Positions 1,098-61,820 of a stretch of DNA of 64,000 bases are shown here, piece after piece (positions within the stretch are counted from its first letter, which is position 1; the number at the start of each line of letters is the position of its first letter). A model generated the notes under the pieces. The model did no database searches. It worked only from the letters and a program-made list of their open reading frames with translations, and was not told the origin of the DNA. Made by a program: the position numbers and the translations under genes. This stretch comes from Escherichia coli (GTDB lineage: Bacteria; Pseudomonadota; Gammaproteobacteria; Enterobacterales; Enterobacteriaceae): the NCBI RefSeq assembly GCF_044324875.1, contig NZ_CP172188.1; one strand, written 5' to 3'.

Positions 1098-4000
1098 GTG
1101 AAAATAACATTCTCCATACCCTCTCAACCGTACCGCATAGCGGATTTTTTACGGTTTAGAGGGGGTAATCCTTTGGATAAACTACTTCATTCAATCAGTG
1201 AAGCCTCCAGCTTAGGCGAACTGATTGAAATTGTTAGTCGGTTGCATAAATTACGTGCTGTTGCGACCTTTGGCGTTAAGAAAGTCGATGGTGTCAGCAT
1301 TCAAAAAACACGGCGGGCAGCAAACAACGCCGCAGTAGAGCTTCTTAATTCCCTTCCGCCCGGCTTCGATGGGGCGAAATTAACTGACGAACAACGTCAG
1401 ATTCTTGCCGGGTATACCGGTGAAGGCGGCCTGACAGATGGTGAGGGCAGCCAATACGAATACTACACACCACAGTTTATGGCTGAAGGTATATGGGATC
1501 TGTTTGCTGACTACGGTATTGATGGCGGGCACGTACTGGAACCATCAGCGGGCACAGGTATTTTCCAGGAGACAAAACGGCAGGGCATGATAATGACCAG
1601 CGCCGAACTATCTCCGATTTCCGGTCGAATAAACCAGCTTTTGCACCCGGAAGACGATGTGAATATCGGGGCGTTTGAGGCGCTGGCGGCGAAAGACGCA
1701 ATGTATGACCACGCTGTTGGTAACGTACCGTTTGGTGAAGGGCGTTCCGGCGTTGCCGGGCTTGATCCGGCATATGCAAACGAGAAGAACGTTGGCAATT
1801 ACTTTGTGCTGCGCACGATCGACAAGGTTAAGCCTGGTGGACTAATTGTATTGGTGGTGCCGAATGGCATGACCGATGGTACGAAATACAAAAAATTGCG
1901 CGATAAAGTCAGCCGTAAAGCGGAATTTTTGGGCGCACATCGTATGCCTTCTGGTACGTTCAGCGAATCCGGTACAGATACAGTGGTGGACGTATGGGTA
2001 TTGCGTAAACACCCGGAAACCTTCCTGGAGATGATCCCCGACACGGATGATGCAACGCTCAAGTCGGCAAACGTCCTTTGGGATACCTTCCTCAAAGGGA
2101 AATGGTTTACAACCGAAGGGAAGCGATTTGTTTACGGCGATATGGAGCGTACCAGCTTCCGCAATACCCTGGTGGTGAAAAAGGACGGTCGTGTATCCAA
2201 TGAGTCGATGAAAAACGCTCTATCGCGCCGCTTTGAAAGCCGCATTAATTGGGATTTGCTTGGCGTAACTACTCAGGCATGGCAGGGCGCGAAAGTGGGC
2301 GATAAACGCCTTGTAGGCGGCATCTGGCATGAGTTTGATGGCCTGAAATGGGTCAAGGACGCGACAACCAAATCCTCCGCGCTTGATGTAAATCGATATG
2401 GTGTTACGACGTTTGGTGATCTGCAGATCGCGTTTCAGTCAACAAATGGCATTCTGGCGTTGTCATGGGACCAGATATCGGCGATCGCGTCCGACTATCC
2501 GTCGGTTATCAGTGATGAAGTAGCGGCAATGATTCGCTTTGCTGGCAAGCAGAGAGAAAAAGACAGAGAACGCGTTATGCGCGGCGCACTGATAGGGCAG
2601 TTGATCAACAAGGCGCTTGATAAGCGTAATCTGGGGGAAAATGTTGATGATGAACTTGCTGATGCCGCGCGCCTGGCGGAAGCCGAAATTGCGAAGTATG
2701 GTCCGCCGCACGCGATTAAGCTGAATGGGATTGCTGAAGCTGGCGCTAAAAACTGGATGACTTTCACTGGCAACGTGAAACAGGACGGCTCTGCTTCTGA
2801 CCTCCTTGCTGGACGACTTGATGTAACGGATGGTGCTGCCGGTATTGACTTTACACGCCCGGAACAAGTTGTAACCCACCTTTTCAGTGACGTGGCACTT
2901 AATCCAATCACACTGGACGATTTTCGTGAGGCGTTTGCTGGCGAACTGCCAGAAGACGAAGATGCTGCTCTGGAATACCTGGCGAAATTTGATGATATCG
3001 CTATTGATGGGTATGGCTGCCTGCTGCCGATGGACCGCGCCACCAGCGGCGATATTGCAACCAAAACAGCATTGCTGGTGGGCTGGCGTGATGCGTCAAC
3101 AGGTGAGCAGAAAGCGAACTTTGAGCGTCAGTTGGCGAAAATCGAAGAGAAACGCATTTTCACGCCACTAAATAAAGTCACCGTTAATCTGAACGCCCGC
3201 TGGCTGGATCGCCGCTTGATAAAAGAGTTCCTGGCAGAGCAGGGCTATGACGAGTTTAAGTATACAGAACCCGACCTTAAGGTTGAGGACGGCATTCTGG
3301 TATCTCCGGACGATTACGAAGGTAAGGACGGGGTATTTACTGGCTATCAACTACGAACCGTAAACGGCAAAAACGGGAATGAGTTCAAGAAGGCCAACAA
3401 TAAAGACGGCTTCCTGAACCAGTTAGAAAACTACCTGAACGGCATTAAACCGCGTGGGCAGAACGCTAACGAGTACCTGGATAAGATTGCTCAACTGGAA
3501 ATTAGCTTCAACGACTGGTTACGCACTCACCCGCAGGCTGATCAGATAGCCCGCGACTATAACGACGCATTTAATGGCTTCATCCCGTTTACGCATTCTG
3601 ACGCACCGCTTGGCCTGGAGGGGATTAGTGGGAAGCGCATTCCTCTGACTTATCAGAATGAAGAAGTTCGGCGCTTGTCAGAAGATGGGCGCGGCATCAT
3701 GGGATTTGGTACCGGGCTGGGTAAAACCACGACCGCGCTTGCGCTTGAGGCGTATAACTTCGAAACAGGTCGCACTAAACGCACGTGTATTGTTGTTCCG
3801 AAGGCGGTTTATCAGAACTGGTATCACGAGGCACAGAGCTTCTACAGTGCTGATGCCTTCGCCAATATGATGTTTATCGGTCTGGATGAAGTTCGTGATG
3901 ACAGCGGAAATATTCTGACCGCGCCGGTGCTTGATGAAAATGGCGAACCACGCCTCGACAGTAACGGGCAGCCTCTTACCCGAAATGTTGTGAAAGAGTC

Positions 4001-10003: not shown

Positions 10004-11212
10004 ATGAGTCAACAAACTGATACTTCTAATCTGGAAATCATCTCAGCCGCGATTGAAACGCTGCGGACACAGATCGCCCTTATTCAAAAGCGGAATCCGG
10101 GGGATGACCTGTCCAGACGGCTACATGAGAGCGTCATTGCCACTACTGATAACCTGGTCGCGGAGATCAACCAGCTACTTGAGGAAGGGACGGTTGATTA
10201 CAACAAGCTGGTGGATCAGTTTGAGGAATATCAACAAGCCGTTAATGATGGCTTGATCCGTTTTTCACAAGTCACAGGCGTATCAGCGACAGTTGAAAGT
10301 CTTGGCAATGCTGTTAATCAATTTGCCGCGAATATGCGTAGTGAGATCGGCAATCTGGAAGCGCGTCTTGAACAGGCAAACACACTGCGCAAATCCGCAG
10401 AAGCCGATTTGAGTCGTTACAAAAAAGACTATCCAGCCAGTCTGTCAAAACGACTGGATGTTGCGGAGAAGGATAACCGTGCGCTGAAAAGAGAGCGTCG
10501 GGAACTAAAAGAGCGTTTAACAGAGCTGAATCAGCAATGCATTAAGTATCAAGGCGAAGGCGTCACACTGCGTAAAAAGTTAGCAGCAGCGCAGAACATT
10601 ATTGAAACGCTGAAACGAGAGTGCTCACAGCTTGGTCATGATCTGAACCGCGCTTGTGGTATGGGACAAAGGCCAGAGACATTCCCGCTCATGTATGACG
10701 GGGTGGATGCTATTGCCTATATCCATGAGTACCCGCATGGTCTGGTTGCGGAGACTGGTCAGCGTGGTGAAGCTCTGTTGACGGCTAATTACCATCAACA
10801 AATTAGAACCAACCGCCTGCTGACGATGGATGTGATCCCATCAGTATGGGGAACGCCGCTTTACTATCGCCTGCCCGGCTTCGAAACGGACTGGAATACC
10901 GATATAGACGAATGCCTGGCAGATAAAATTATGGCGTACCTGGAGACTGATTTCCCGCGCCTGCATCGCCGGATTATGGACTCTAAGGATGCGCCGATCG
11001 ATGAATTGAAAATGCGCCCAGAGACGTTGGAAGCTATCAAACAGACTGCGTTTGATACCGTATTCAGCGTGGCCTGTATCCCAAGTAGTTTTCATGAAAG
11101 CATCCCCTTTATGCAGGGCGACCGTCGTCAAGAAATTATTGATGCCTGCCGGGTGTGGGCTAACGAATGGGACAAGAAGAATGGGGGCGTAGAAGATCTT
11201 TATGGGAAATAA
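10004..11212 (+). CDS. hypothetical protein with N-terminal coiled-coil region
   Basis: ORF 9920..11212; most likely start ATG 10004 (GGGAA RBS-like 7 nt upstream); heptad-like charged N-terminal third. Confidence 0.55.
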   Translation: MSQQTDTSNLEIISAAIETLRTQIALIQKRNPGDDLSRRLHESVIATTDNLVAEINQLLEEGTVDYNKLVDQFEEYQQAVNDGLIRFSQVTGVSATVESLGNAVNQFAANMRSEIGNLEARLEQANTLRKSAEADLSRYKKDYPASLSKRLDVAEKDNRALKRERRELKERLTELNQQCIKYQGEGVTLRKKLAAAQNIIETLKRECSQLGHDLNRACGMGQRPETFPLMYDGVDAIAYIHEYPHGLVAETGQRGEALLTANYHQQIRTNRLLTMDVIPSVWGTPLYYRLPGFETDWNTDIDECLADKIMAYLETDFPRLHRRIMDSKDAPIDELKMRPETLEAIKQTAFDTVFSVACIPSSFHESIPFMQGDRRQEIIDACRVWANEWDKKNGGVEDLYGK

Positions 11213-11213
11213 T

Positions 11214-11231
11214 ATGTTAGAAATCTAATTT
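11214..11231 (+). promoter_or_regulatory. operator-like motif copy (ATGTTAGAAATCTAATTT)
   Basis: Starts 2 nt after stop of the 10004..11212 CDS. Confidence 0.45.
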
Positions 11232-11368
11232 CATCAAACGAACATATTGATTGTGAGAGTAACTTAACTTAGAATTTTCCTTGCTGGTGGAGCGTTGCCA
11301 CATTTCGCTTGCTGGGCTTGATAGTCACTTATTGGTTGTTGTTCGCCCACCAGCAAATAACAAATTAA

Positions 11369-11385
11369 AGTGTTAGAAAATTACA
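11369..11385 (+). promoter_or_regulatory. operator-like motif copy (AGTGTTAGAAAATTACA)
   Basis: TGTTAGAAAA core at the start of the long non-coding tRNA region. Confidence 0.4.
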
Positions 11386-11967
11386 TGCATACAGGGACTC
11401 GCTTTGGCACCGAGCAAGCCAAAGTTCAGCAGGTTTAGTGCGTAAAGTGGTTTCAGAGAGAGCACTTTACGGAGTAAACAACAAGACATGTTGAGCCACG
11501 GAAGGTCTTTTTAAGATGTTCATTGATGATGGTCCGGCAGAGAGTAACGGGACTCGCCGCATCGAATCATCATCAATGCACATCCTCAACATTAAGGAGG
11601 CATAGGGATTTTTTTGTGGCGATTACCTTTTGCCCTAAGTCTCCTTAATGTTGCGGTAATGCACCTATGCGGATGCGGCCTTGCATTGTGTCTTGAAAGA
11701 ATGGGGTAAGGCCGGGGATATCCCCAGGGGGAGGCACCCCCGCTGCAACGAACAGCCACAGACGGCAGTCGAGTGATGGAAACGTGCAAAGACTTTAAAC
11801 CTCGTTACGGCTGGCGTGGCAAACGCGACAACCGAGACAGAGCGGTGACGGGCGGAGAGAGTGCCGCATCAAGAAAGAAGCCGACTTGTGATCCCTTTCT
11901 GCGGGCATTTGAAAGTGAATCCAGCTCAGGCAGTCGGCTTCTTTCTTGTGTGAGATGTAGCGTATTT

Positions 11968-12451: not shown

Positions 12452-12528
12452 GATGGTGTAGCTCAGTAGGATAGAGCAGCAGCCTTCTAAGCTGTCGGTC
12501 GGTGGTTCGAATCCACCCACCATCGCCA
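12452..12528 (+). tRNA. tRNA-Arg (anticodon TCT)
   Basis: 77 nt; 7-bp acceptor stem GATGGTG/CACCATC, D-arm GCTC..GAGC, anticodon loop CTTCTAA, T-arm GGTGG TTCGAAT CCACC, encoded CCA. Confidence 0.9.
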
Positions 12529-12530
12529 AT

Positions 12531-12606
12531 GCCGGTTTAGCTCAGTTGGTAGAGCGCCTGCCTTGTAAGCAGGATGTCAGCGGTTCGAGTCCGTTAACCG
12601 GCACCA
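12531..12606 (+). tRNA. tRNA-Thr (anticodon TGT)
   Basis: 76 nt; acceptor GCCGGTT/AACCGGC, anticodon loop CTTGTAA, T-loop TTCGAGT, encoded CCA; P1 also carries a tRNA-Thr. Confidence 0.9.
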
Positions 12607-13561: not shown

Positions 13562-13637
13562 GGCCCTTTAGCTCAGTGGTTAGAGCTGGCGACTCATAAT
13601 CGCACGGTCACCGGTTCAAGTCCGGTAGGGGCCACCA
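13562..13637 (+). tRNA. tRNA with CAT anticodon, most likely tRNA-Ile2 (lysidine type) rather than elongator Met
   Basis: 76 nt; GGCCCTT acceptor, anticodon loop CTCATAA, T-loop TTCAAGT; resembles enterobacterial ileX-type tRNA as I recall it; P1 also encodes a tRNA-Ile. Confidence 0.85.
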
Positions 13638-14666: not shown

Positions 14667-15058
14667 TGTACGAGACAACAAAATTAAGCATTCACGAAGT
14701 CTCCAACGTGGAGTGGAATATCGTCACCTGTAAGATTGTATCGTGTAATGCTGCGCGTACTGATGCAGGCCATAAGAGCACGATAACAGGCTACATGGTA
14801 ATGGCTTATAGGGGATTGAGAGTTCGCTTTATCTGGAAAGCTCGGCAATTGACACCATTCAGAGAGCCGTCAATGCCATTAGAGGTAGAACAGGATTATT
14901 TAAGCCTGCCGGAAATAGACGGTGCAACGCTGGTGGATTCTGATGGTCGTAAGGCTGATTTTGAAGTCAGCTTAAAGGTGGCGCAGGCCGTAATTAATAA
15001 CTCACGTGGTAAGTGGATCGCTAAGGTAAAACACGTCGTTCGCTTATCTCGCTGGTAG
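14666..15058 (+). CDS. hypothetical protein
   Basis: 130-aa ORF; start overlaps upstream stop (TGATG). Confidence 0.5.
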   Translation: MYETTKLSIHEVSNVEWNIVTCKIVSCNAARTDAGHKSTITGYMVMAYRGLRVRFIWKARQLTPFREPSMPLEVEQDYLSLPEIDGATLVDSDGRKADFEVSLKVAQAVINNSRGKWIAKVKHVVRLSRW

Positions 15059-15070
15059 TGTTAGATGAAT

Positions 15071-15089
15071 GGAATTAATTTTCTAATAT
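15071..15089 (-). promoter_or_regulatory. operator-like motif copy (reverse strand ATATTAGAAAATTAATTCC)
   Basis: 15 of 18 consensus positions; upstream of the Lpa-like candidate. Confidence 0.35.
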
Positions 15090-15166
15090 AACCAACTTTT
15101 TGCCAGTCTATACAGAAATAACATTCTCATTATCATCCCCTCGGTCATTTCCTGCCTGGGGGATTA

Positions 15167-18453: not shown

Positions 18454-19491
18454 TTACCAGAGTTTAGCGGCGTGCTGTGTTTGGGAGAAAGTGAACCCGT
18501 AACGTTCTTCTATGGTTTTACCGTATCTTTTCCGCGCGTCTGTCAGTTTTATGCCTGTCAGGTCATCTCCGGATGTCATCATTACGTCTAACAACTCCAG
18601 ATCCATTTTATTCAGTCGCGCCATCGCTTCGCGTGCTGTCTGTATTTTACGCTCAATGATATGGCGAATAGCCGGATCGGCTTCCTCAAGCATTTTGGCT
18701 GATTTGTTCTTTAAGCTCTCATTGCGGATGTCGATGTTTCGCAAGATGTATGACTTCGCAACATAGCTTGGTTGGTGTTTCTCCAGATCGCGAACGCGAT
18801 AGAGACTAAAGTCACCAAGCAGGCCGCAAGGTATCGACTCAACCCCAGAATAAATAGTAATGCTGCGACGTTCGCCGACATTATTAACAACGGGCACTGT
18901 GGTGTTCGGAAGTTTTGCGAACACTAAGGCTCCGTGTGCGCCTACCCTGAATCGTGACAGAGCATTGCTGCCTTCAATGTTTGTTGTAAGCACTACATCT
19001 GTGTATCCATCTTTGCGCGCCCGGTAAACTTCCCCTTCAGGTTCTGATGCGAAAAAACGGCGCTCTTCTTCAAGTGCACCAACAATCTGCGAAAATATCT
19101 TGTTTTTCAGGCTTTTCTTTATAATTGCATCATATTTTTTGAGCAGATTTTCGCGCGTAAATGAGCGGGTGGTGGTCGCGCTTTGCACAACAATATGCGT
19201 GCTTTGATTTGTGTCCTCGATAATGAATGGGATCGGAGAATATACAGACTCAACAATGTTAGACGCTTTGCCGTCAGCGTTACGGCACAAGTCAACAAAG
19301 GCTTTCCATTCTGTGAGGCACTTTTCAGCTTCTTCTAGCACATTCTGATCATGTGTTAGTGCAACATGGCGGAATTCCTCGCCGGCATAACTGGTATCAT
19401 GGAAAACAGAGTTTGCGACCACCAGCTCTTTCCACCGTTCAGCGGTTTGCAGGAACCGTTTGTACTCTTTCTCGATCGACTTCTTACTCAT
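18454..19491 (-). CDS. candidate C1-like master repressor (by position and operator cluster; sequence not confirmed)
   Basis: 345 aa; convergent with pacB as c1 is in P1; its upstream region 19504..19700 carries 2-3 operator-like motifs. Confidence 0.35.
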   Translation of the reverse strand: MSKKSIEKEYKRFLQTAERWKELVVANSVFHDTSYAGEEFRHVALTHDQNVLEEAEKCLTEWKAFVDLCRNADGKASNIVESVYSPIPFIIEDTNQSTHIVVQSATTTRSFTRENLLKKYDAIIKKSLKNKIFSQIVGALEEERRFFASEPEGEVYRARKDGYTDVVLTTNIEGSNALSRFRVGAHGALVFAKLPNTTVPVVNNVGERRSITIYSGVESIPCGLLGDFSLYRVRDLEKHQPSYVAKSYILRNIDIRNESLKNKSAKMLEEADPAIRHIIERKIQTAREAMARLNKMDLELLDVMMTSGDDLTGIKLTDARKRYGKTIEERYGFTFSQTQHAAKLW

Positions 19492-19691: not shown

Positions 19692-19725
19692 CTAACTTTA
19701 GATAATTGGCATTATTTAAAGTTAG
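19692..19725. other. lox-like 34-bp recombination site (13-bp inverted arms, 8-bp spacer)
   Basis: CTAACTTTAGATA-ATTGGCAT-TATTTAAAGTTAG; arms differ at one position; 9 of 13 arm positions shared with loxP ATAACTTCGTATA; 150 bp upstream of the Cre-like gene. Confidence 0.55.
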
Positions 19726-19876
19726 GCTATAATTATGGGTAGATGATCAGTATTGACATCACTGAAAATACGTGCCTCGAATCAAAGGCTTGAATCTTGA
19801 AAATTAACTTATAGCTACCCTGTCATTTTTATATTTTTCGCGTAGCGTCATCTGTATATAGAGGTTAAATAGTTTC

Positions 19877-20905
19877 ATGAGTGAATTAATTATCTCTGGC
19901 AGCTCCGGTGGTTTTCTGCGCAACATTGGCAAAGAGTACCAGGAGGCCGCAGAAAACTTTATGCGGTTCATGAATGACCAGGGGGCTTACGCGCCGAATA
20001 CTTTGCGCGATCTCCGGTTAGTGTTTCACTCCTGGGCGAGATGGTGTCACGCTCGCCAGCTCGCCTGGTTCCCGATCTCACCAGAGATGGCCCGCGAGTA
20101 TTTTCTTCAGCTGCATGATGCTGATCTGGCTTCGACCACCATTGATAAGCACTACGCCATGCTTAACATGCTGCTTTCGCATTGTGGCCTTCCGCCACTT
20201 TCGGATGATAAAAGTGTTTCTCTGGCTATGCGGCGCATCCGGCGTGAAGCGGCAACTGAAAAAGGCGAACGAACAGGCCAGGCTATACCGCTGCGGTGGG
20301 ACGATCTGAAACTGCTCGACGTCCTGTTGTCCAGGTCAGAACGGCTGGTGGACCTGCGCAACCGGGCTTTTCTCTTTGTTGCATACAATACGCTGATGCG
20401 TATGTCGGAAATCTCGCGTATTCGTGTAGGAGATCTGGATCAAACAGGTGACACTGTCACGCTACATATTTCACACACGAAGACAATAACGACCGCCGCC
20501 GGGCTTGATAAGGTGCTTTCCCGTCGCACTACCGCTGTGCTGAATGACTGGCTGGATGTTTCCGGGCTTCGCGAACATCCTGACGCAGTGTTGTTCCCGC
20601 CGATACACCGTAGCAATAAGGCCAGGATCACGACAACGCCCCTTACTGCACCTGCAATGGAGAAAATATTCAGCGACGCCTGGGTGTTGCTGAATAAAAG
20701 AGATGCTACGCCAAACAAAGGAAGATACCGGACGTGGACCGGGCATAGTGCACGCGTCGGGGCCGCTATTGATATGGCTGAAAAGCAGGTGTCTATGGTG
20801 GAGATCATGCAGGAAGGAACCTGGAAGAAACCGGAAACACTTATGCGGTATCTTCGCCGTGGCGGCGTGTCTGTGGGGGCTAATAGCCGCCTGATGGATT
20901 CGTAA
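19877..20905 (+). CDS. cre: Cre-family tyrosine recombinase
   Basis: 342 aa; blocks resembling P1 Cre as recalled: MLNMLLSHCGLPPLSDDKSVSLAMRRIRRE, DLRNRAFLFVAYNTLMRMSEISRIRVGDL, WTGHSARVGAAIDMAEKQVSMVEIMQEGTWKKPETLMRYLR (R-H-R-Y region). Confidence 0.85.
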   Translation: MSELIISGSSGGFLRNIGKEYQEAAENFMRFMNDQGAYAPNTLRDLRLVFHSWARWCHARQLAWFPISPEMAREYFLQLHDADLASTTIDKHYAMLNMLLSHCGLPPLSDDKSVSLAMRRIRREAATEKGERTGQAIPLRWDDLKLLDVLLSRSERLVDLRNRAFLFVAYNTLMRMSEISRIRVGDLDQTGDTVTLHISHTKTITTAAGLDKVLSRRTTAVLNDWLDVSGLREHPDAVLFPPIHRSNKARITTTPLTAPAMEKIFSDAWVLLNKRDATPNKGRYRTWTGHSARVGAAIDMAEKQVSMVEIMQEGTWKKPETLMRYLRRGGVSVGANSRLMDS

Positions 20906-20922
20906 ATTAAAATTCTAACACA
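20905..20922 (-). promoter_or_regulatory. operator-like motif copy (reverse strand TGTGTTAGAATTTTAATT)
   Basis: Upstream of the 20979..24600 operon. Confidence 0.45.
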
Positions 20923-20978
20923 TCTTTTTAGATTAACGCCTTTGCTGTAAAGTACCCTCGCCTATTTAGGAGGGTGCT

Positions 20979-21323
20979 TTGCAGAGTCAAATCACGGAAT
21001 CAAGACGCTTCAAGGTGGATGGTTACACCGTAACCTTCGCCGCTGGTGTTAAGAACAGTCATGCTGTCGTTGTGTTCGGCATCATGACCGGGCTTGAGGC
21101 CGTCCCTGTGTTTACCCTCGAAAAAAACTGGCGAAATCTGGAGGAAGCAGAAAGCTACGTCCGGAAAGTAACCATCATTGCCGCCGAAAAACTCCTGGCC
21201 CACTATCAGGAAAATTATCGCACTATGGTCGAGAAGATTAATCTCGCTTTCACTCGCCCCACTACCGGCTTTATTGCACCGGATACTAATGCCGGTCGAT
21301 ATCCTGCAAGGGGGCGTCGGTGA
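20979..21323 (+). CDS. hypothetical protein
   Basis: 114 aa; TTG start with strong RBS TAGGAGGG. Confidence 0.45.
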   Translation: MQSQITESRRFKVDGYTVTFAAGVKNSHAVVVFGIMTGLEAVPVFTLEKNWRNLEEAESYVRKVTIIAAEKLLAHYQENYRTMVEKINLAFTRPTTGFIAPDTNAGRYPARGRR

Positions 21324-21796
21324 AAACTTATTACCCATCTCTGAATTGTTACCCGTCTTCCTATCCAGAATTATCCGGGAAGCTGTTAGCTCTATTAGCT
21401 AAAGCACCTACGGAATGGTTTAAGCCAGTCGTTATCAATCCACACTTCCTGGGGTACGGATCTGTTCGCACTCGTAACGAACTCAAAAACCTACTGGCGC
21501 ATGGATTCATTCGACACCGTGCCGGGAAAGGCTATCAGTTAGCGATTGCGCCAGAAGAGGCCGTGCGGCTATTCGCATATCGTGACAGCCAGACAAAAGC
21601 TCGGGTAATAGCTCAAATACTTCATAACGGCAGCACCTATGCCCGCCAGTTTGGCGGCGACACGTCGCAGTTCTTGCGGGCGGTGCGATCGCTGGAGGAG
21701 CAAGGAGTTATTGAAAGTTCCTGTCTTCCTGTTCCTACCGTTCCACATATCAAACGTCGGGTTTACACCTTCACGCAGAGAGCTAAAAAACAATGA
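21320..21796 (+). CDS. hypothetical protein
   Basis: 158 aa; GTG start overlapping upstream stop (GTGA). Confidence 0.45.
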   Translation: MKTYYPSLNCYPSSYPELSGKLLALLAKAPTEWFKPVVINPHFLGYGSVRTRNELKNLLAHGFIRHRAGKGYQLAIAPEEAVRLFAYRDSQTKARVIAQILHNGSTYARQFGGDTSQFLRAVRSLEEQGVIESSCLPVPTVPHIKRRVYTFTQRAKKQ

Positions 21797-22287
21797 TTTA
21801 CGTAAAAGTGAAACGCCTACATCCGGCAGCAAAACTTCCAGCTTATGCCACCTCCGGATCGGCGGCGATGGATTTTGAGGCTGTTGAAATAAAACCATGC
21901 GTCGATAGCAATGGTGCAATTTCCTCAAGCTGGTGGGTGTATACCGGACTGGCTATGGAGATCCCGCCCGGCTGGTGTCTGAAACTCTATCCGCGATCAG
22001 GATTGGGCTGCAAAAAACATACTCGCCTGGCTAACTGCGTAGGAATTATCGACTCCGATTATCGCGGCGAAATCATGGCAAAACTGATTACTGATCCAGG
22101 CGGGGAAGGCGTTTGTCTCAAGCCTGGAATGGCTGTCATGCAAGGAATTTTTGAGCGTGTTGAACAAGTCTCACTAGTCGAGGTTGAGGAACTCAACGAA
22201 ACGGAGCGTGGTGCTGGTGGCTTTGGTAGCACATCGGAAGGCCACTTTGAAATTAAGCGTTCACCGCTTCAGTACGAAAAGTTATAA
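21793..22287 (+). CDS. dut: dUTP diphosphatase (dUTPase) family protein
   Basis: 164 aa; motif YPRSGLG and motif G-x-ID-x-DYRGE (GIIDSDYRGE). Confidence 0.75.
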   Translation: MIYVKVKRLHPAAKLPAYATSGSAAMDFEAVEIKPCVDSNGAISSSWWVYTGLAMEIPPGWCLKLYPRSGLGCKKHTRLANCVGIIDSDYRGEIMAKLITDPGGEGVCLKPGMAVMQGIFERVEQVSLVEVEELNETERGAGGFGSTSEGHFEIKRSPLQYEKL

Positions 22288-22301
22288 GCAGAGAAAAGAC
22301 T

Positions 22302-22742
22302 ATGAATAACATGGCAACGAAAGAGCTTTTTAAGTTCCGTCCCAAATACAAAGCTCACAAAAAAAATGGAACCACGGTCATCATTACGGATGACAACGGC
22401 GTGATGATTAATCTTACCGGGAGCGTAACTATTTCTGCTGGTGGCATCACCACCCAGCAAGAAGAAATCGACCTTGAAGCAGCCGACTTTTCAGACGCGC
22501 TGATGTGGCTGAAGGAAGGCAAGAAAGTTGCTCGACGCGGGTGGAACGGCGAAAACCAATTCTGCTGGCTGGTTCCTGAAGGACAGTACCCGGCACGAAT
22601 GGAAGCCATTAAGGGATATTTCCCCGGCGACCTCGTTCCGTATGGTGCTTATTTCGCCTTAAAAAATGCACAAGGTGTAGTTGTTCCGTGGGTGCCTTCA
22701 GTTGGCGACCTGCTGGCCTGTGACTGGTTTGTTGTGGAGTGA
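22302..22742 (+). CDS. DUF2829/Tad2-like domain protein (candidate signalling-nucleotide sponge)
   Basis: 146 aa; C-terminal LMWLKEGKKVARRGWNGENQFCWLV ... PWVPSVGDLLACDWFVVE. Confidence 0.55.
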   Translation: MNNMATKELFKFRPKYKAHKKNGTTVIITDDNGVMINLTGSVTISAGGITTQQEEIDLEAADFSDALMWLKEGKKVARRGWNGENQFCWLVPEGQYPARMEAIKGYFPGDLVPYGAYFALKNAQGVVVPWVPSVGDLLACDWFVVE

Positions 22743-22748
22743 TTTGAC

Positions 22749-23516
22749 ATGGAAAGCACTAAAACAATTCAATACCGCTTGCGTAATGGCCTGCTGGTGG
22801 CTGTTAACGCCGACATGTCACTGCCGTTTGACACGATTGAACGCACTATCATGACGTATCTCGGCTTTAATGAAGAGCTGAATGAAGAGCATGGCGTAGC
22901 TATATGGAGTGATGCAGACAGCGGCGTTCGTCGTTACATCACCGCCAGGGGCAAAGACTACTCTCTGGAAGAACTGTTTGCCCTTGCGCAGTCTTTCGAA
23001 TGTGTAGCATTAGACCTGTTTAATGATCCTGCTATAGCGCAACGACTTATACGCGAGCTTGGGCTATCCGTTACACCAATTATATTTAAAAATGGCAGCC
23101 TGACTGGCACATGGCGCGTAGAACGCATCTCAAACTACCTTCCATATAACCGACAGTTAAATGGAGTAATCTCCGGCGTTAACCAGCCCGTAGCGTGTGA
23201 AAATGTAAACCTGGTTGTCGCTGTTTTGGCAACCGCATGTCGTGTTATCGGTTTGGCTAAACAGGCATTTATTCATTTCCCAAATGGTGCAGAAGGTAGC
23301 GCAGAGATTATCGCGTGTGATTTCGAATTTACCTGGATGCTACGCGAATATCTGGACCAAACAGTATTCCGTGCCGAAGAACTGGATATGTATATCACGT
23401 CAACGATTCCAGACGATGTGCGAGCTGAAGCAATCGCTACAGCCAGGGCGAAATGCCGTGCGGCGATTGCAGAACAGGCCAAAGAAGAAGTTAAGGAAGT
23501 GGCAGATGGCGACTAA
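22749..23516 (+). CDS. hypothetical protein
   Basis: 255-aa ORF in the same operon. Confidence 0.5.
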   Translation: MESTKTIQYRLRNGLLVAVNADMSLPFDTIERTIMTYLGFNEELNEEHGVAIWSDADSGVRRYITARGKDYSLEELFALAQSFECVALDLFNDPAIAQRLIRELGLSVTPIIFKNGSLTGTWRVERISNYLPYNRQLNGVISGVNQPVACENVNLVVAVLATACRVIGLAKQAFIHFPNGAEGSAEIIACDFEFTWMLREYLDQTVFRAEELDMYITSTIPDDVRAEAIATARAKCRAAIAEQAKEEVKEVADGD

Positions 23517-24600
23517 GAGCAATATTTATAAAGATCCGCGCTGGCTGTCGCTGGTGGAGAAATATAAAGACAATTGGGTACTGGCAGCAAAAGAATTGTT
23601 TGATATTGATTTAAGCCACCAGCAACAACAAATTGTTGAAGCTATACAGCCCAATAATGCAAAAGCTACTGTCACCACTCCGTATGGGATCGGACGACCG
23701 CAAGTGCTTGCTGTTATTAGTACCCTTTATACGATTATGTATCCTGATTCCCGGACAGTAATTGTTTATCCAAAATCAAATGTTTGCAAAAGAGGAATTG
23801 TTGCATATGTGTGGCAATGTTGGGAGGCATTGCTGAAAAAACAACCTTTTATCATTGAGTATTTTAAGGTCGGTGATAGCGGTCTGATGTTCAATGAATT
23901 TTGGGGAATGTGCTTTTGTAACTTCCGCCTTAACTATGAAGATAGCATTGCAGGTCACTACGCCGACCATCTTTTATTCATTATTGTGGATTCCGCACAT
24001 ATCAGCGATCGGGCATACAGCATTGTGTGGGCAAGCATGACTAGTGGTGATTCACGCATATTGCTCACTTCAATTCCGTCACCAGAGGAAATAGGCTTTT
24101 TTTATGATTCACATCATGGACGTGCTTTAGCTGAAGATAATCCGAGTGGTGTATATAAAGCCATTAAGCTGAGTGCGGAGGATTCACCATTTATTACCCA
24201 AGAATATCTTGATCATTTTGCCGAAAGGTATGGCGGGCGAAATAGTGATGACTATCGTCGTATGATTCTTGGTGAGTTCCCTGGTATTAGGGAGGCTGTT
24301 CTTGAATCAGATATGCCGAAGACAATGCGCTTTTCGATGCCTGATGGTAGTGAATGGACAATACCATTACGAGTGATAGCCCGGCATCATGCGCAGCACC
24401 ACGCCAAAAAACATGGCGTCACGACATTAGAATGGTTGAAATCGCACACCATTCCACTCTTCACTGCAGATCACAATGCTATCGTTGAGTGGGCAAAAAC
24501 AATTCCGTGGGAGAATGTCGCTGAATACGCCCACATGCTAAAACCGCCGAAAGACAGGCAAGAAATTAGCTGGCTGACAGCAGAAAAAATCATTGAGTGA
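23506..24600 (+). CDS. terminase-large-subunit ATPase-domain paralog with degenerate Walker motifs and no nuclease domain
   Basis: 364 aa from ATG 23506 (RBS AAGGAAG); aligns to PacB-like 16920..18428 (DPRW..KY, SHQQQ, YDSHH, DNP, YGGR, FPG) but Walker A GHGTGKS becomes PYGIGRP and Walker B ILDEAS becomes IIVDSA. Confidence 0.65.
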   Translation: MATKSNIYKDPRWLSLVEKYKDNWVLAAKELFDIDLSHQQQQIVEAIQPNNAKATVTTPYGIGRPQVLAVISTLYTIMYPDSRTVIVYPKSNVCKRGIVAYVWQCWEALLKKQPFIIEYFKVGDSGLMFNEFWGMCFCNFRLNYEDSIAGHYADHLLFIIVDSAHISDRAYSIVWASMTSGDSRILLTSIPSPEEIGFFYDSHHGRALAEDNPSGVYKAIKLSAEDSPFITQEYLDHFAERYGGRNSDDYRRMILGEFPGIREAVLESDMPKTMRFSMPDGSEWTIPLRVIARHHAQHHAKKHGVTTLEWLKSHTIPLFTADHNAIVEWAKTIPWENVAEYAHMLKPPKDRQEISWLTAEKIIE

Positions 24601-24606
24601 TAGTAA

Positions 24607-24636
24607 GAAGCCCGCCTGGTTGAGCGGGCTTCTTTT
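24607..24636. terminator. hairpin terminator between convergent genes
   Basis: GAAGCCCGCCTGGTTGAGCGGGCTTCTTTTC. Confidence 0.6.
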
Positions 24637-25016
24637 CAAATATTGGAACCATATAGTTCACGTAGTTTTTTCGCTACTGAAGATACGGGGATTTCACCAG
24701 TTGCAGCCCCCACTGCAAGCTCCACCAGCACGGGATCATCATATACCTGTATACCGTTACGGCGTAGAAATAGCAGCGCACTGTTTAGCGCGGTACGCTT
24801 ATTGGCATCATTGAATATATGCCCTCTCGCCGTAGCCACCAGGTAGGTGGCGGAGACTTCGAAAAGGTCGGTGATCTCTTCGTAGGCAACTCTGGCCTGA
24901 ACTCTCCCGATAATGGCCTCTGCCCTACCCGGATCTGACATTCCCGGCAGGCCGCCGTAGCGGCTTATATTCGCATCATGAAGCGCAATAAGTTCTTCCG
25001 GTGATATATGCCTCAT
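24636..25016 (-). CDS. doc: Doc toxin (Fic-family kinase) of the phd-doc addiction module
   Basis: 126 aa [40 protein letters not shown]...; essentially the P1 Doc sequence as I recall it. Confidence 0.93.
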
Positions 25017-30406: not shown

Positions 30407-31402
30407 TCAGTTATTGAAAGTGATCACTCCGCGCTCGATGGCGAAGTCAAAAAGCTGGTTAGCGGCTACGTAAAGGCGTATGCCATGTGCTTTTTCCCAT
30501 GCCCGGACATCGTTTTCTGCGCTTCTGGCGCAGTCATCGCAAAGAGGAACAGCCCAGCGGTCGTGTTCGTTTAACGAGCGGGCGCGGTATATGAACGGGT
30601 GGTTAACTTTGCCACCGCATCCGATGCACGGACGAGAAACCACAAACCGGAGATAAGCCGGGCTTTTACCGAGGACCGCTTTTGGTCGGCGCATATAAAG
30701 CAGGCCGGAATCCTCATCTACAGACAGGTTGACGATCTGCTCTGCGGTTATGTCCACCAGCTCGCGGGTACTGTGCTCCCAGGTGATATCTGATTCTTTC
30801 AGCGTACCGGTAGGGATTTCAGTTTTTGGCTGACAAAATGCAATGCGACCGGCTTCATCTGGCAGCTCATCTTTCAGATTCCGGCGAATGGCCCAAAAAG
30901 TGAGTTCAACCATGCTCAGATCGCGTTCTGGCGGTAGTTTTAACTCGCTCGCAGCCCAGTTCATAACCCAGTTGGCACGATTCAGGGATAACTGGTCGTC
31001 CAGCTTGCTGTACCCCTTCATCATGTATTCCGCATCATGCTTCCAGCACAGGCGAACGGCAGAGCCGTTATAGAAATGAGTGGTTAGCTGGTGGCTGCAA
31101 TCGCGCTTATCGTGCGCCTGGCAATCGTGGATATTGGAACTTACCCAATGAACAAGCGAATCTTCACCGCCCAACGCGTTAAATACGCGCTCGCTTTGAA
31201 AAAACGGTTTCAGAGACTGGTTGGCAACCAGCGAATAATTCAGATCCACTACGCCATCTGGCGTGTTTTCAGCCTGTTCACGCGGAAGTGGGGAGATAAT
31301 GAAACGGCGACCTACGCCAATGTAGTTACTGGTGGGCTTGTCTACCGGAAAGACAGCCACACCAGCTCCGTTTACGAAATGAGGTGTGATTATTGCACTC
31401 AT
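30407..31402 (-). CDS. hypothetical protein with C-terminal Cys-cluster (zinc-binding) motif, DUF968-like
   Basis: 331 aa; C-terminal RPCIGCGGK ... VPLCDDCAR. Confidence 0.45.
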   Translation of the reverse strand: MSAIITPHFVNGAGVAVFPVDKPTSNYIGVGRRFIISPLPREQAENTPDGVVDLNYSLVANQSLKPFFQSERVFNALGGEDSLVHWVSSNIHDCQAHDKRDCSHQLTTHFYNGSAVRLCWKHDAEYMMKGYSKLDDQLSLNRANWVMNWAASELKLPPERDLSMVELTFWAIRRNLKDELPDEAGRIAFCQPKTEIPTGTLKESDITWEHSTRELVDITAEQIVNLSVDEDSGLLYMRRPKAVLGKSPAYLRFVVSRPCIGCGGKVNHPFIYRARSLNEHDRWAVPLCDDCARSAENDVRAWEKAHGIRLYVAANQLFDFAIERGVITFNN

Positions 31403-31443
31403 AATGTATACCGACTCTGTTTTGTTCCGAGCGGTAAAATAAT

Positions 31444-31477
31444 ATGTTAGAAAACTAAAATCAATGTTCTAACACAT
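31444..31477. promoter_or_regulatory. paired (inverted) operator-like motifs
   Basis: ATGTTAGAAAACTAAAATCAATGTTCTAACACAT: TGTTAGAA ... TTCTAACA inverted halves; upstream of the 30407..31402 gene. Confidence 0.5.
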
Positions 31478-31499
31478 TTTGAGTGCGTAAATGATTTGA

Positions 31500-32192
31500 T
31501 CAGACTTTAAGCTGTCCTCCCTTCACCTGCATTAGCGTCAGATTTCCGCAAAAAACCGCGCCCGTGTCTATGTAGTGCTGATTCCAGTATGCTTTTGGTC
31601 TTCGTACCGGTGTGTGCCCAAAGATAAAGCGATCTGCGCCTGTGATTTCTCCACCAATGCCATCTATCGAATCACCGACGCGACTGCGCGACCAGACAAC
31701 ATCAAAAAGCGACACATCCTTACCGAACTGGTACTCTCCACCTGGATAGTCGGCATGGGCTATAACGATAGTTTCATGCCCGGTGTTCAGCTCAATGATA
31801 TAGGGCAGACGCTTTACCAGCTCCACCAGCGCCCTGGCTAATATTTCCTGATCAGTGTCCAGCATGAAGAACCATTGACCGCCATTCATTAGCCAGTTAT
31901 TCACATTGCCTGCGGGACTTAACGCATCGATCATTAATCGCTCGTGGTTTCCCATAACCGACCGAAACCAGGGCATCTGCAATAGCTCCAGGCATTCAAC
32001 ATTTTCGGCGCCGCGATCGATAAGGTCGCCAACCGATATCAGTAAATCCTGTGTCGGGTCAAAATCCACACGATGGAGTTCATTCATAAGTAGGGTGTAG
32101 CAACCGTGCAAATCACCAATAACCCATATGTTTCTGTAGCCTGAACCATCAATACGGCTATATAAATTCACTTCATGCAGAGCCTGGATCAT
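31500..32192 (-). CDS. Ser/Thr protein phosphatase (lambda PPase / calcineurin-like metallophosphatase)
   Basis: Motifs GDLHG, GDLIDRG, GNHE; ATG overlaps upstream stop (ATGA). Confidence 0.85.
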
Positions 32193-35001: not shown

Positions 35002-36180
35002 ATGTTAAGAGCGACAAAAGTACGCATATATCCCACTACTGAACAGGCTGAGTATCTCAATGCCCAGTTCGGTGCGGTACGTTTTGCGTACAATAAAGCT
35101 CTTCACATCAAAAAACATGCTTACCAGCGATACGGGGTGAATTTAAGTCCGCGCAAAGATTTAAAGCCGTTGCTGTCTATAGCGAAGAAGTCCCGTAAGT
35201 ATGCCTGGCTCAAAGAGTTTGATTCAATGGCATTGCAACAGGCAGTAATTAATCTTGATGCGGCATTTTCCAACTTTTTTAATCCGAAGCTGAAAGCACG
35301 GTTCCCGACGTTTAAACGTAAACACGGGAGACAATCGAGCTATCACTGCACCGGAATCAAGGTGCTGGATGATGCCATTAAGATCCCTAAACTGAATCTG
35401 CCGATAAAGGCGCGTATACACCGTGTAATTACGGGAAAAGTAACGAGCATAACAATTACTCGCAATGCCGCTGGGGAATATCACGCATCCATCCTTTGTG
35501 ATGACGGTATTCCCGCGCCAGAGAAACCCACGTATCTGGAAGAAGAAAAGATTACTGGTGTGGACATGGGATTAACAGATTATGCCATCAAATCGGATGG
35601 TAATAAGGTTGGTAATCCTCGTCATCTCATCAATGCCAGTCGTAATCTGCGACGCAAACAAAAAGCGTTATCCCGCAAGCAAAAGGGAAGCGCGAACCGT
35701 AAAAAGGCCAGAATCCGTCTGGCAGCGTTACACGAACGGGTGGCTAATGCCCGTGCTGATTTTCAACACAAGCTCTCTCGTGCAATTGTTGACGAAAACC
35801 AAGCGGTAATTGTCGAGACGCTGAAAACAGCCAACATGATGAAAAACCACAATCTGGCAAGAGCGATAGGTGATGCAGGCTGGCATAGCTTCATCACAAA
35901 GCTGGAGTACAAGGCAGCGGAAAAAGGCGTTCACCTGGTAAAACTCGACCAGTGGTTTGCCAGTTCGAAAACGTGCCATTGTTGTGGTTACAAAATGCCG
36001 GAAATGCCGCTTCATAAACGCATCTGGCGATGCCCTGAATGTGGAGCAGAGCACGACCGCGATATCAATGCGGCGCTCAATATCCGGCAAAAAGGAATAC
36101 TGGAACTAAAGGCGGCGGGACTCGTCGTTTCTGTCCATGGAGGCCAGCGTAAATCCGTCGAACAGACGGTAGCGGCCTGA
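35002..36180 (+). CDS. tnpB: TnpB (OrfB; RNA-guided RuvC-like endonuclease)
   Basis: 392 aa; N-terminal MLRATKVRIYPTTEQAEYLNAQFGAVRFAYNKAL; C-terminal zinc finger CHCCGYK...CPECG and RuvC-III-like DRDINAALNI. Confidence 0.9.
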   Translation: MLRATKVRIYPTTEQAEYLNAQFGAVRFAYNKALHIKKHAYQRYGVNLSPRKDLKPLLSIAKKSRKYAWLKEFDSMALQQAVINLDAAFSNFFNPKLKARFPTFKRKHGRQSSYHCTGIKVLDDAIKIPKLNLPIKARIHRVITGKVTSITITRNAAGEYHASILCDDGIPAPEKPTYLEEEKITGVDMGLTDYAIKSDGNKVGNPRHLINASRNLRRKQKALSRKQKGSANRKKARIRLAALHERVANARADFQHKLSRAIVDENQAVIVETLKTANMMKNHNLARAIGDAGWHSFITKLEYKAAEKGVHLVKLDQWFASSKTCHCCGYKMPEMPLHKRIWRCPECGAEHDRDINAALNIRQKGILELKAAGLVVSVHGGQRKSVEQTVAA

Positions 36181-38139: not shown

Positions 38140-38430
38140 GGCATTATCGTGGGGTATATTTCTACGGCACCTTAGAAAAACGGGTGCCGGGATTGGAACC
38201 CCGGATAATGCAAAAGGCGACACAGACGCCGAAAGCGTCTTTTCTTGTGTCATGCCATCGCACAGCCATACGTAGCGTTTAGCTCAGAGATCAATGGTAG
38301 TGCTGGCTGGGCTGCCGAAAGGCAGGCCGGTTCCCTTTTGCGCCGGTAGTTCCAACCCAGTCAGTGCTACCGCCATTGAGATTGGAACCTCACGCGGTAG
38401 CTCCTTAAATTAGCAAAAGGAGGCTGCCAA
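38140..38430 (+). ncRNA. candidate c4-like antisense RNA / leader region of immunity module A
   Basis: Structured leader upstream of the icd-like gene: direct repeats GATTGGAACC (38192, 38383) and a partly complementary GTTCCAACC (38346); hairpin GACGCCGAAAGCGTC + T-run near 38223. Confidence 0.3.
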
Positions 38431-39932: not shown

Positions 39933-40068
39933 TTGAAAGGTCTTAACGATAGTCTGCCACGAATAGTTACTTTCACTGCCTAAAGTTATTTAATTGCATT
40001 ACAAAGTGTAAATTAGTAACATTAGAATCTCACACAGCACTATAACTATATGTTTTTTATGTAAAAGG

Positions 40069-40428
40069 ATGATAATCGTGGCTACTAAAATTAAACTTGA
40101 AAACCCTCAAACTGGCGAATCAATCACCGGTTTTTATGGTTTTTCCTGGACTACATTCTTGTTTGGTGCTTTTCCAGCTTTGTTCAGGAAAGACTTTATA
40201 ACTTTTATTGGGGTATTCGTAGTGATGCTGATACTGGCATTCCTCACAGCCGGAATTGGCCCGTGGATTGCCTCATTTATCTGGGCGTTCATGTATAATA
40301 AATATTTCACCGTAAATAAGATAAAACAAGGCTTCATTTTTGCTGGTTCTCACACAGAAAATGAGTTGGCTGCTAGCAAGCTAGGATTGTCATTAAATCA
40401 AAACAACTGCAAAACTATTACCGAGTAA
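40069..40428 (+). CDS. small integral membrane protein
   Basis: 119 aa with two hydrophobic helices; AT-rich locus. Confidence 0.5.
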   Translation: MIIVATKIKLENPQTGESITGFYGFSWTTFLFGAFPALFRKDFITFIGVFVVMLILAFLTAGIGPWIASFIWAFMYNKYFTVNKIKQGFIFAGSHTENELAASKLGLSLNQNNCKTITE

Positions 40429-40468
40429 TAGCCAAAAAGCAGGCTTAATAGTAAGCCTGCTATGTCAA

Positions 40469-41290
40469 TCACGAATCTCTCTGACAATTCAGAAACATAA
40501 ACGCCCGCTTGTCTGTTAAATCCGTAACATAATACTCTCTCATGCCTGTAGGTTTTATTCTACGAGCATATACAAACTTATGAACTGGTTGTTTTTCCCC
40601 ATAACTTACATCAGTCCTAAATTCATCAACCACGCTACCATCTTTTTCGACTTCCTTCCTCACCAGCTTATTTTCTAATGCTGGCTTTAATTCGTCCATG
40701 CCACTAAAAGCATCCTGGCCTGTACTATTGCCTCGATTTCCGCGCGGCAAATCCCAGGAGAAATAAGTGCCATAGTCAGTAATCACACGATCCCAGACTC
40801 CGGTATCCCCCATATAGTTAGAGCGCTTTCCATTGTAGGTTACAGCCACTTTACAGGAGTACGTTTCTTCATTCCCTCCAGCCTTACTCGCTGTGGTTGC
40901 AGGGATATTTTGGATAGATGCGCTTACGTCATCTTGCGTTAATTCCTCAACTGGAGCAAATTCATATATGGGTGTGCCGAGGCTATTTAAATATAACTTA
41001 TATCTAACCCTAAGCGCACTTCCATCTGAGAATTCATACGTTCCCAGGCATTGGAGCTTATTTTTTTCTCTTATCTCATTGATCTGATAATAAGCATCAA
41101 TTACAGAGATTGCTTCCTGATCGTCCTTCAGCAGTTCATTATAATCATCAATTAACATCTGTCTGGTTTTAGGGGCATTGCAGTCAATTTTGCTAAAATC
41201 ATAAGCAAAGGCAAATGTGGGAACAGAGAGAGCAACAACAGTAGCAAGTATTGTTGAGGAACATCTTTTTCCATTTTTTATAAAAAACAT
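40469..41290 (-). CDS. secreted (signal-peptide) protein of unknown function
   Basis: Start ATG 41290 with GGAG RBS; N-terminal signal-like STILATVVALSVPTFAFA; AT-rich. Confidence 0.5.
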   Translation of the reverse strand: MFFIKNGKRCSSTILATVVALSVPTFAFAYDFSKIDCNAPKTRQMLIDDYNELLKDDQEAISVIDAYYQINEIREKNKLQCLGTYEFSDGSALRVRYKLYLNSLGTPIYEFAPVEELTQDDVSASIQNIPATTASKAGGNEETYSCKVAVTYNGKRSNYMGDTGVWDRVITDYGTYFSWDLPRGNRGNSTGQDAFSGMDELKPALENKLVRKEVEKDGSVVDEFRTDVSYGEKQPVHKFVYARRIKPTGMREYYVTDLTDKRAFMFLNCQRDS

Positions 41291-44935: not shown

Positions 44936-45271
44936 TCACATTAGTAGCTTTGTTAACTCCCTCAATACCAGGTAGAAGAGTAACAAAAACACTGACGTGG
45001 ATACCTGCTGAGTTAAAGAAGCACTAATGAATTTATTCAATAAATCAATCAGCTTATTAAAAATATTCATCTTTTCGAATCCATTCGATCGGTAAATAAC
45101 ACCCAGCTCACTATCGAGCTGGTCCACGCCTTAAGATTAATGAAAGTCACTTGTTGACAGTCAATAAATTCCAGGGTGGCGAAAAAACTCTGTCTATACG
45201 GATAGTGCTTGCATTTTACTCTTTCTGCGTGTAGCGTATATACACAGGTTGCACGCACGAATGGAATTATT

Positions 45272-61793: not shown

Positions 61794-61820
61794 GCTTCAC
61801 AAAATCTATATAGCTATTTT

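Follow-up and report, generated by a model that had tools for sequence, protein, structure and literature searches.

A probably repressor-controlled early accessory operon with a Tad2-family gene and a predicted pseudo-terminase in D6-type P1-like phage-plasmids

Six coupled genes downstream of dre

We analyzed a 64,000-nucleotide stretch of the Escherichia coli contig NZ_CP172188.1 (hereafter the window), focusing on a block of six genes, here named g1 to g6, that lies between the recombinase gene dre and the convergent gene doc. DNA comparison showed 100% identity between the block (positions 20800-24700) and pPSS-10_3, an E. coli plasmid (NZ_AP027688), and that phage D6 shares 97.8% DNA identity with it across 20800-23490 (g1-g5). 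Based on these matches, the window is therefore identified as a phage D6-type, P1-like phage-plasmid (plasmid prophage) of E. coli. As detailed below, the evidence moderately favors the block being a repressor-controlled, post-dre early accessory operon of such phage-plasmids, where early expression is suggested by the position of the operator. Its genes, together with dre, are as follows.

19877-20905, dre (D6 recombinase; a Cre homologue, earlier called cre), upstream of the six-gene operon
20979-21323, + strand, g1, 114 aa, TTG start (D6 orf117, phrog_1968)
21320-21796, + strand, g2, 158 aa, GTG start (D6 orf116, phrog_6669)
21793-22287, + strand, g3, dUTPase, 164 aa (D6 orf115)
22302-22742, + strand, g4, Tad2/DUF2829 protein, 146 aa (D6 orf114)
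22749-23516, + strand, g5, IsaA homologue, 255 aa (D6 orf113, phrog_2326)
23506-24600, + strand, g6, predicted pseudo-terminase, 364 aa, ATG start

The original prediction of six tightly coupled + strand genes was borne out, and the coordinates of all six agree with the RefSeq annotation of the identical plasmid pPSS-10_3. One open reading frame had been drawn too long, from a TTG (23215-24600); RefSeq and all homologues support an ATG start at 23506 for this gene (g6). The genes overlap by GTGA at the g1/g2 junction, by ATGA at g2/g3 and by 11 nt at g5/g6, and are separated by gaps of 14 nt (g3/g4) and 6 nt (g4/g5). When compared with relatives at 66-99% protein identity, dN/dS was about 0.05-0.33 across the six genes, with g2 reaching 0.55. 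Hence, all six are maintained coding genes under purifying selection, including g6, which had been described as degenerate.

The first five genes occur in the same order after dre in phage D6 itself (orf117-orf113; MF356679 / NC_050154, dre-dut region AY753669), and the D6 record already labels them as hypothetical proteins, a dUTPase, a DUF2829 protein and a protein 'similar to P1 isaA'. Phage D6 differs in having a pdcA-like gene in place of g6, and its record has neither an annotated operator or hairpin in this region nor a functional interpretation of it. Comparative genomics further showed that g1-g2-dut-isaA is an invariant post-dre operon throughout the D6-like plasmids. The DUF2829 gene (g4) is long, short or absent among the same plasmids, and g6 is present as either of two alleles or absent, as in phage D6. 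In a distant 84-kb element (L010; Dre 53% identical), the order of a cre-like gene, g1, g2, a dUTPase-fold gene and an IsaA-like gene is kept, and the pseudo-terminase sits further on, where it is translationally coupled to the Ref nuclease.

A family of operator-like sites

The original prediction also placed an operator-like site at 20905-20922, and this site proved to be over-represented and part of a dispersed motif family. Four matches to the 18-mer (≤3 mismatches) were found in the window, compared with 0.12 expected, and an 8-mer core, TTCTAACA, occurs 13 times with conserved flanks. A weight-matrix scan of the window identified 16 sites scoring above the best site in shuffled sequence (consensus AAATTAGTTTTCTAACAYA); the site at 20905-20922 scored 24.3 bits, compared with a shuffle maximum of 17.2. 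Overall, the family comprises about 17 dispersed copies of an asymmetric motif in the 17-19 bp range, occurring both as single sites and as back-to-back pairs, and the four pairs all share an identical 12-nt register. In relatives that are only ~80% identical, the core ATTAAWTTTCTAACA is kept between dre and g1, in contrast to the variable 10-15 nt that come next. Copies of the motif face either way with respect to the flanking genes, an observation that favors an operator over a promoter element. The c1-like gene, the c4 locus and selected motif sites are listed here.

15055-15092 (15055/15067), motif sites upstream of the gene in lpa's position before pacA (weight matrix)
18454-19491, - strand, 345-aa c1-like repressor gene with pacB and dre on either side, a location like that of c1 in P1
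19498-19523, motif site upstream of the c1-like gene, directly before its start (weight matrix)
20905-20922, + strand, operator-like site AATTAAAATTCTAACACA between dre and g1, a copy of the asymmetric motif AAATTAGTTTTCTAACAYA
61818-61855 (61818/61830), back-to-back motif pair upstream of the c4 locus, ~50 nt before Rfam c4-a1b1/C4
61907-61959, c4-a1b1 targets (Rfam)
62028-62113, C4 antisense RNA (Rfam)

In the record of P1, operators Oref and Omat are found just after cre, Ossb is found before ssb-isaA, and the C1 operator Oc4, which adjoins the -35 of P2c4, precedes the a1 target by ~100 nt. The C1 repressor of P1 also controls c1 and lpa. The motif copies at c1, the lpa-position gene and c4 thus mirror part of the C1 regulon of P1. 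The block resembles the C1-controlled genes of P1 after cre (c8, Oref-ref and Omat-mat) in that early or accessory genes, probably repressor-controlled in the window too, directly follow a Cre-type recombinase, but the content is unrelated, and the Ref and Mat homologues of the window are encoded elsewhere (35109-35687 and about 39937-40590, respectively). Accordingly, the claim that none of the six genes is a P1 core gene in this position holds insofar as c8, ref and mat follow cre in P1, but it overlooked that g5 corresponds to the P1 gene isaA.

The presumed trans-acting factor for the motif family is the product of the gene at 18454-19491, which has been treated as the c1 of D6-like plasmids (PMC6799933). 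The protein matches the NCBIfam model phage_rep_C1 weakly (E 4.5e-5, 23 bits; cut-off 500), and its allele in pEC361_3 is named 'phage repressor protein' in RefSeq. Taken together, we infer from sequence that the D6 repressor very probably uses 20905-20922 as an operator. The P1 operator consensus, ATTGCTCTAATAAATTT, had no match in the window at ≤3 mismatches, as expected in a heteroimmune relative, and was rejected as an explanation of the site. The P1 late-promoter box was likewise rejected since it is nearly absent, with a single copy on the - strand at 45127-45154 (ACAAGTGACTTTCATTAATCT) in the whole 64 kb. As the P1 late box (AAGTGAYTT) occurs just once, D6-type late promoters must mostly use a recognition sequence other than that of P1.

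This scarcity of P1-type boxes could also mean that the motif serves another factor, such as a D6 late-promoter activator (an Lpa analogue), and that the operon is expressed late. One possible reading of the motif is a 9-bp box, a 3-nt spacer and TAACAY, loosely like the -22 box and -10 of P1 late promoters, and some copies fall in the tail-gene region. However, many copies are antisense to, or point away from, their neighbors (e.g., 9960, 36960 and 63757, all on the - strand among + strand genes), and the four back-to-back pairs are arranged as in the bivalent operators of P1. Moreover, the copies upstream of c1, the lpa-position gene and c4 are at loci that in P1 are C1 targets, not late genes. 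We therefore regard a late-activator element as very improbable.

Other members of the motif family were noted elsewhere in the window. A high-scoring back-to-back pair (31441-31478) is located inside a DUF968 coding sequence (30891-31844, - strand) in the middle of a string of - strand genes, where either the start of the coding sequence is mis-annotated or the pair marks an internal regulatory point. Motif sites at 11211-11236 and 11367-11392 are near three tRNA genes (12452-12603 and 13562-13634), which are in a region without any coding sequence in the plasmid gene table. The window also contains two separate C4 RNA loci (Rfam RF01695; 38290-38377 and 62028-62113). The first (38167-38377) has an isrK-like RNA upstream of C4, and the other (61907-62113) has the c4-a1b1 targets, so the element may carry two immI-type modules.

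Promoter candidates and RNA hairpins

Scans for promoters and RNA structure identified three further features flanking the operon.

20907-20954, + strand, two weak sigma-70 candidates, TTAAAA-16-TAGATT and TTTAGA-15-TAAAGT (each 8/12; loose scan)
20945-20984, + strand, 15-bp RNA hairpin enclosing the Shine-Dalgarno sequence GGAGGG (20970-20975) and the TTG start codon (20979-20981) of g1
24605-24634, GC-rich hairpin flanked by T-runs, located where g6 and doc converge (terminator-like in scan)

The operator overlaps the first promoter candidate or abuts the second, similar to the arrangement of Oc4 with P2c4 in P1. The hairpin at the start of g1 has a predicted free energy of -25.6 kcal/mol (z -5.9), and none of 200 shuffled sequences was as stable. 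Across five relatives, 97% of cells were paired and compatible changes were seen (one double and two single), although five sequences are too few for strong covariation. The hairpin was rejected as an intrinsic terminator, given that no U-tract follows it, and its position would instead suit a role in translational control or processing. The hairpin at 24605-24634 (-20.1 kcal/mol, z -4.2) is likely a bidirectional terminator common to the operon and doc.

A Tad2 homologue with core pocket residues

Homology searches verified the proposed identities of the dUTPase, the Tad2/DUF2829 protein and the degenerate terminase paralogue. The predicted g4 protein consists of a 57-aa N-terminal extension followed by a complete Tad2/DUF2829 domain (residues 58-146). 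It matches MoTad2 (9EIB) and Tad2 (8V3E) with 47% identity over 88 residues (E 3e-21), and SPO1 Tad2 with 36% identity (E 5e-10). Among the residues reported to form the pocket of SPO1 Tad2 (bioRxiv 2023.05.01.538930), W25, N26, W73, S76 and D79 are kept in g4 as W80, N81, W130, S133 and D136. The Tad2 family is an immune-signal sponge by experiment in every tested case, and its ligands vary with the pocket, including 3'cADPR, His-ADPR, N7-cADPR, cUMP/cCMP and cyclic dinucleotides. The likeness of g4 to the Tad2, MoTad2 and HgmTad2 sponges (8SME, 9EIB, 8V3E and 8KBI) extends over the whole domain and the core ligand-contact residues. It differs from them in its extension and in several altered adenine-side residues.

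At 146 aa, g4 is longer than the single-domain Tad2 proteins of about 90-105 aa, and other alleles are longer still (216-281 aa). Compared with the 216-aa allele of other D6-like plasmids, the form found in the window and in phage D6 carries an in-frame deletion. Its 3' half shares ~94% DNA identity with P1-like plasmids, indicating that g4 is a recombinant allele. The common 216-aa D6-type allele (e.g., relatives L006, 3003-3653, and L007, 3013-3663) has EWKGEK in place of GWNGEN, which replaces the pocket Asn with Lys, and a 9-residue loop deletion; an EWKGEK allele is also present in pGMI14-002_2, and the window and D6 carry the P1-type domain. Hence, the ligand pocket varies among the Tad2 alleles of this lineage, and the allele series offers a lead for work on ligand specificity. 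The occurrence of Tad2 in these elements is itself already known: a gene described as 'Tad2 AcrIIA7 (anti-Thoeris)' was reported for both the D6-like (93%) and the P1-like (56%) phage-plasmids in a 2025 preprint (bioRxiv 2025.09.12.675607), which also links P1- and D6-type phage-plasmids to clinically relevant lineages.

A predicted pseudo-terminase

The N-terminal part of g6 (residues 7-259) is paralogous to the ASCE ATPase domain of PacB/TerL of P1-like phages, sharing 37% identity over 258 residues (E 1e-61) with residues 10-264 of the resident PacB and also matching the phrog_2 terminase (E 9e-9). The catalytic features of the enzyme are nonetheless missing. The Walker A motif (consensus GxxxxGK[ST]) reads GIGRPQ where PacB has GTGKSS, with loss of the lysine, and Walker B (consensus hhhhDE) reads VDSAH rather than LDEAS (IIVDSA versus LILDEA), with loss of the acidic pair. 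The similarity to PacB stops at residue 259, and g6 has no nuclease domain; an unrelated C-terminal domain is fused instead (residues 265-364, ~100 aa), which is also widespread in the form of free-standing phage proteins of ~100 aa. The genomic context of one of these free-standing proteins was uninformative.

Identical losses were found in two further alleles, one D6-type (65% identical) and one P1-type (52% identical), and in stand-alone paralogues of ~260 aa from other elements, whereas full-length TerL relatives retain GTGKS and DEAS. These shared losses therefore point to an old, conserved pseudo-enzyme, comprising a predicted dead PacB-type ATPase domain (residues 1-260) and a ~100-aa domain, and not to a decaying copy. 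A decaying pseudogene was also rejected based on the dN/dS of g6 (0.10-0.33) and on the intact reading frames of the 65% and 52% identical alleles. The pseudo-terminases, an old family under purifying selection, provide a further lead, and their partner could be found by pull-down.

A cassette shared with P1-like plasmids

The g5 protein is 48% identical to P1 IsaA over 88% of its length and matches phrog_2326 with an E value of 1e-133. In wild P1-like plasmids and phages (SJ46, RCS47 and NZ_CP058750), ssb, a DUF2829 gene, isaA and a g6 homologue form a series of overlapping genes behind Ossb (formerly Op21). The same trio is thus found there in the same order, with overlapping junctions and its own C1 operator upstream, at ~94% DNA identity to the window for the Tad2 domain, and at 48% and 52% identity for IsaA and g6, respectively. 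The two arrangements differ in what precedes the trio (ssb in P1-like plasmids versus dre-g1-g2-dut in the window), in the operator (ATTGCTCTAATTAATTT versus AATTAAAATTCTAACACA) and in the length of the DUF2829 protein, which is longer in the P1-like plasmids (224-281 aa). Judged by sequence, g4-g5-g6 is a cassette that two heteroimmune lineages share, and in both it follows the lineage's own operator. From this placement, the cassette would be expected to be expressed as soon as infection or induction begins, the time at which counter-defence proteins have to be present.

Reference P1 (NC_005856) lacks most of this cassette. Its 320-aa 'IsaA' (21569-22531) is a fusion, in which the first ~57 residues correspond to a DUF2829 protein (86% identity to the N-terminus of SJ46 gp048, encoded at SJ46 2478-3323) and the rest to IsaA. 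The laboratory P1 therefore lost its Tad2-like gene by a deletion that joined the 5' end of that gene to isaA. Reference P1 also has no g6 homologue; the possibility that P1 isaB is an IS1-truncated remnant of one was rejected, as the two share no similarity. Consequently, this classic model phage lacks two of the three genes of a cassette found in about half of wild P1-like and most D6-like phage-plasmids, and the Tad2-like gene and pseudo-terminase therefore escaped decades of P1 genetics.

These comparisons also show that the block is no peculiarity of the one plasmid: g1-g2-dut-isaA is fixed across the D6 lineage, and the trio is standard after ssb in wild P1-like plasmids. The block is nonetheless not universal core, in agreement with the original prediction, given that g4 and g6 are variably present among D6-like plasmids and that isaA of P1 was found to be non-essential by CRISPRi (PMC10695390).

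The first three genes

The g1 protein had no match in Pfam, NCBIfam or PDB, and no detectable relatives of known function. A 44% identical homologue occupies the same post-cre position in the distant 84-kb element, and dN/dS of g1 was 0.10-0.32. No Pfam match was found for g2 either, but its family profile compared against PDB returned almost only winged-helix DNA-binding domains, all sub-threshold (E 0.015-0.8). Residues 18-73 were matched to EutK, and residues 80-139 to CodY, ArsR, SlyA and Lrp. Based on these sub-threshold matches, g2 is probably a tandem winged-helix protein with one domain in each half. Its dN/dS ranged from 0.06 to 0.55.

The third gene is predicted to encode a bona fide, intact dUTPase of the trimeric Dut type. 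It exceeds the cut-offs of the NCBIfam equivalog NF001862 (121.5 bits; cut-off 103) and of TIGR00576 (119.2 bits; cut-off 102.55), and also matches phrog_135. Of the five conserved catalytic motifs, four (I, II, III and V) are preserved relative to E. coli Dut, reading AAMDF, PRSGLG, GIIDSDYRGE and RGAGGFGSTS, respectively, and motif IV is diverged (AVMQG versus RIAQM). To our knowledge, dUTPases have no established counter-defence role, and g3 is ordinary phage nucleotide metabolism. In the dut position of the distant element (L010 1889-2359), the encoded protein has a dUTPase fold by sequence (24% identity) with degenerate motifs I, II and III and no motif V, a hint that the Dut-like protein there may function without catalysis.

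Control and function of the operon

If the block is a repressor-controlled early accessory operon, a D6 C1-type repressor bound at 20905-20922 would keep the weak adjacent promoter shut in the lysogen. Upon infection or induction, host RNA polymerase would then make one six-gene message ending at the hairpin common to doc, and the hairpin that covers the g1 start codon and its ribosome-binding site would add control at the RNA level. The dUTPase would remove dUTP during phage replication, and g4, as a Tad2-family tetramer, may soak up nucleotide immune signals of the Thoeris, Pycsar or CBASS type. Having lost its catalytic residues and nuclease domain, g6 would be unable to package DNA and might bind either a protein that partners the genuine terminase or a host protein that senses terminase. 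Within such an operon, g1, g2 and dut make up the part that is fixed in, and specific to, the lineage, and g4-g5-g6 the mobile, accessory part, probably involved in host interaction.

Several observations weigh against this interpretation. With regard to g4, its N-terminal extension was not found in characterized Tad2 proteins, and its pocket differs on the adenine side (I63->L, T65->N, D67->Q, H71->V and T78->G; SPO1 numbering). A homology-based link to counter-defence is available for only one of the six proteins (g4). For g5, no functional match was found in Pfam, NCBIfam, PADLOC, PDB or by structure comparison, where the confident AlphaFold model (pLDDT 85) had an unannotated phage protein as its best structural neighbor, and for the C-terminal domain of g6 there was no Pfam family, solved fold relative or functional match. 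Several copies of the motif are located inside annotated coding sequences. No good sigma-70 promoter lies beside the operator (none in a standard scan; best 8/12 in a loose scan), and a terminator scan found no terminator between dre and g1, so that read-through from dre in the lysogen is possible.

The last two observations would fit an operon that is co-transcribed with dre, free of repressor control, and expressed in the lysogen to serve the plasmid prophage or the host. A strong promoter-like site (11/12) is in fact present upstream of dre at 19706-19733. As an example of such a service, the pseudo-terminase might poison the pacase of superinfecting P1- or D6-like phages (exclusion), and a dominant-negative fragment of an ATPase domain would be a plausible inhibitor of an oligomeric motor. 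We nonetheless consider lysogen expression improbable: the operator-family site is positioned exactly between dre and g1 and is conserved there, the homologous cassette of P1-like plasmids is behind the experimentally known C1 operator Ossb, and the hairpin at the start of g1 would limit translation of read-through transcripts.

The original prediction of an accessory or anti-defence module is partly supported: the block is accessory, and g4 belongs to the Tad2 family. PADLOC, PHROGs, NCBIfam, Pfam and PDB returned no recognized anti-defence homology for g1, g2, g5 or g6, however, and because only the Tad2 homologue has homology-based support, 'anti-defence module' as a label for the whole block goes beyond the evidence. 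IsaA and the pseudo-terminase are linked to Tad2 in two lineages, are dispensable and vary in presence, which is suggestive of counter-defence by association. A bolder version, which we consider doubtful, is that the trio is a three-part counter-defence cassette, in which g6 is a terminase mimic that acts either as a decoy or blocker of Avs-type STAND NTPases, which are host sensors of the terminase large subunit, or as a dominant-negative inhibitor of competing P1- and D6-like pacases; the fused ~100-aa domain of g6 could then be an independent inhibitor module.

Alternatively, the operon may support replication and DNA handling without a dedicated counter-defence role, with the Tad2 homologue as a passenger. 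Dut would then sanitize the nucleotide pool, g2 would bind DNA, and IsaA and g6 would modulate recombination or the timing of pac cleavage on the phage's own DNA, such as by holding PacA or the pac site until late in infection. The position of the P1-like cassette after the replication gene ssb, the coupling of the L010 pseudo-terminase to Ref, the resemblance of g2 to DNA-binding proteins and the derivation of the g6 N-terminal domain from the partner protein of PacA are all in keeping with this. However, Tad2 proteins act as immune-signal sponges wherever tested, and g4 keeps the pocket residues. Furthermore, P1 can grow without isaA, reference P1 grows and packages normally without a Tad2-like gene or pseudo-terminase, and phage D6 is viable without g6. 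A purely DNA-handling operon is accordingly unlikely, and an early accessory operon under repressor control remains our preferred interpretation.

Apart from the five annotated D6 genes and the reported occurrence of Tad2, we found no description in the literature of the start-codon hairpin, the cassette shared with P1-like plasmids, its loss from reference P1 or the pseudo-terminase family, and nothing relevant on a dead terminase paralogue or terminase decoy. No description of the D6-type operator family was found either, although its novelty is uncertain, as the original D6 literature was not covered. The candidate D6 operator sequence provides an additional lead, as it would define the D6 immunity regulon.

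Distribution among plasmids and genomes

Homologues of g1 were present in 157 plasmid records, and full-length homologues of g6 in 163. Some part of the block was detected in 222 of 5,426 complete E. coli genomes (about 4%), and at least 80% of it was present in 38 of those 222. Seven of the 229 matching places in complete E. coli genomes were chromosomal rather than on plasmids, and may represent integrated or mis-assembled copies of P1- or D6-like elements. In one plasmid (NZ_OY754373.1, 9390-15419), which is otherwise 99.9% identical, the block is interrupted by the IS21-like element ISEc62.

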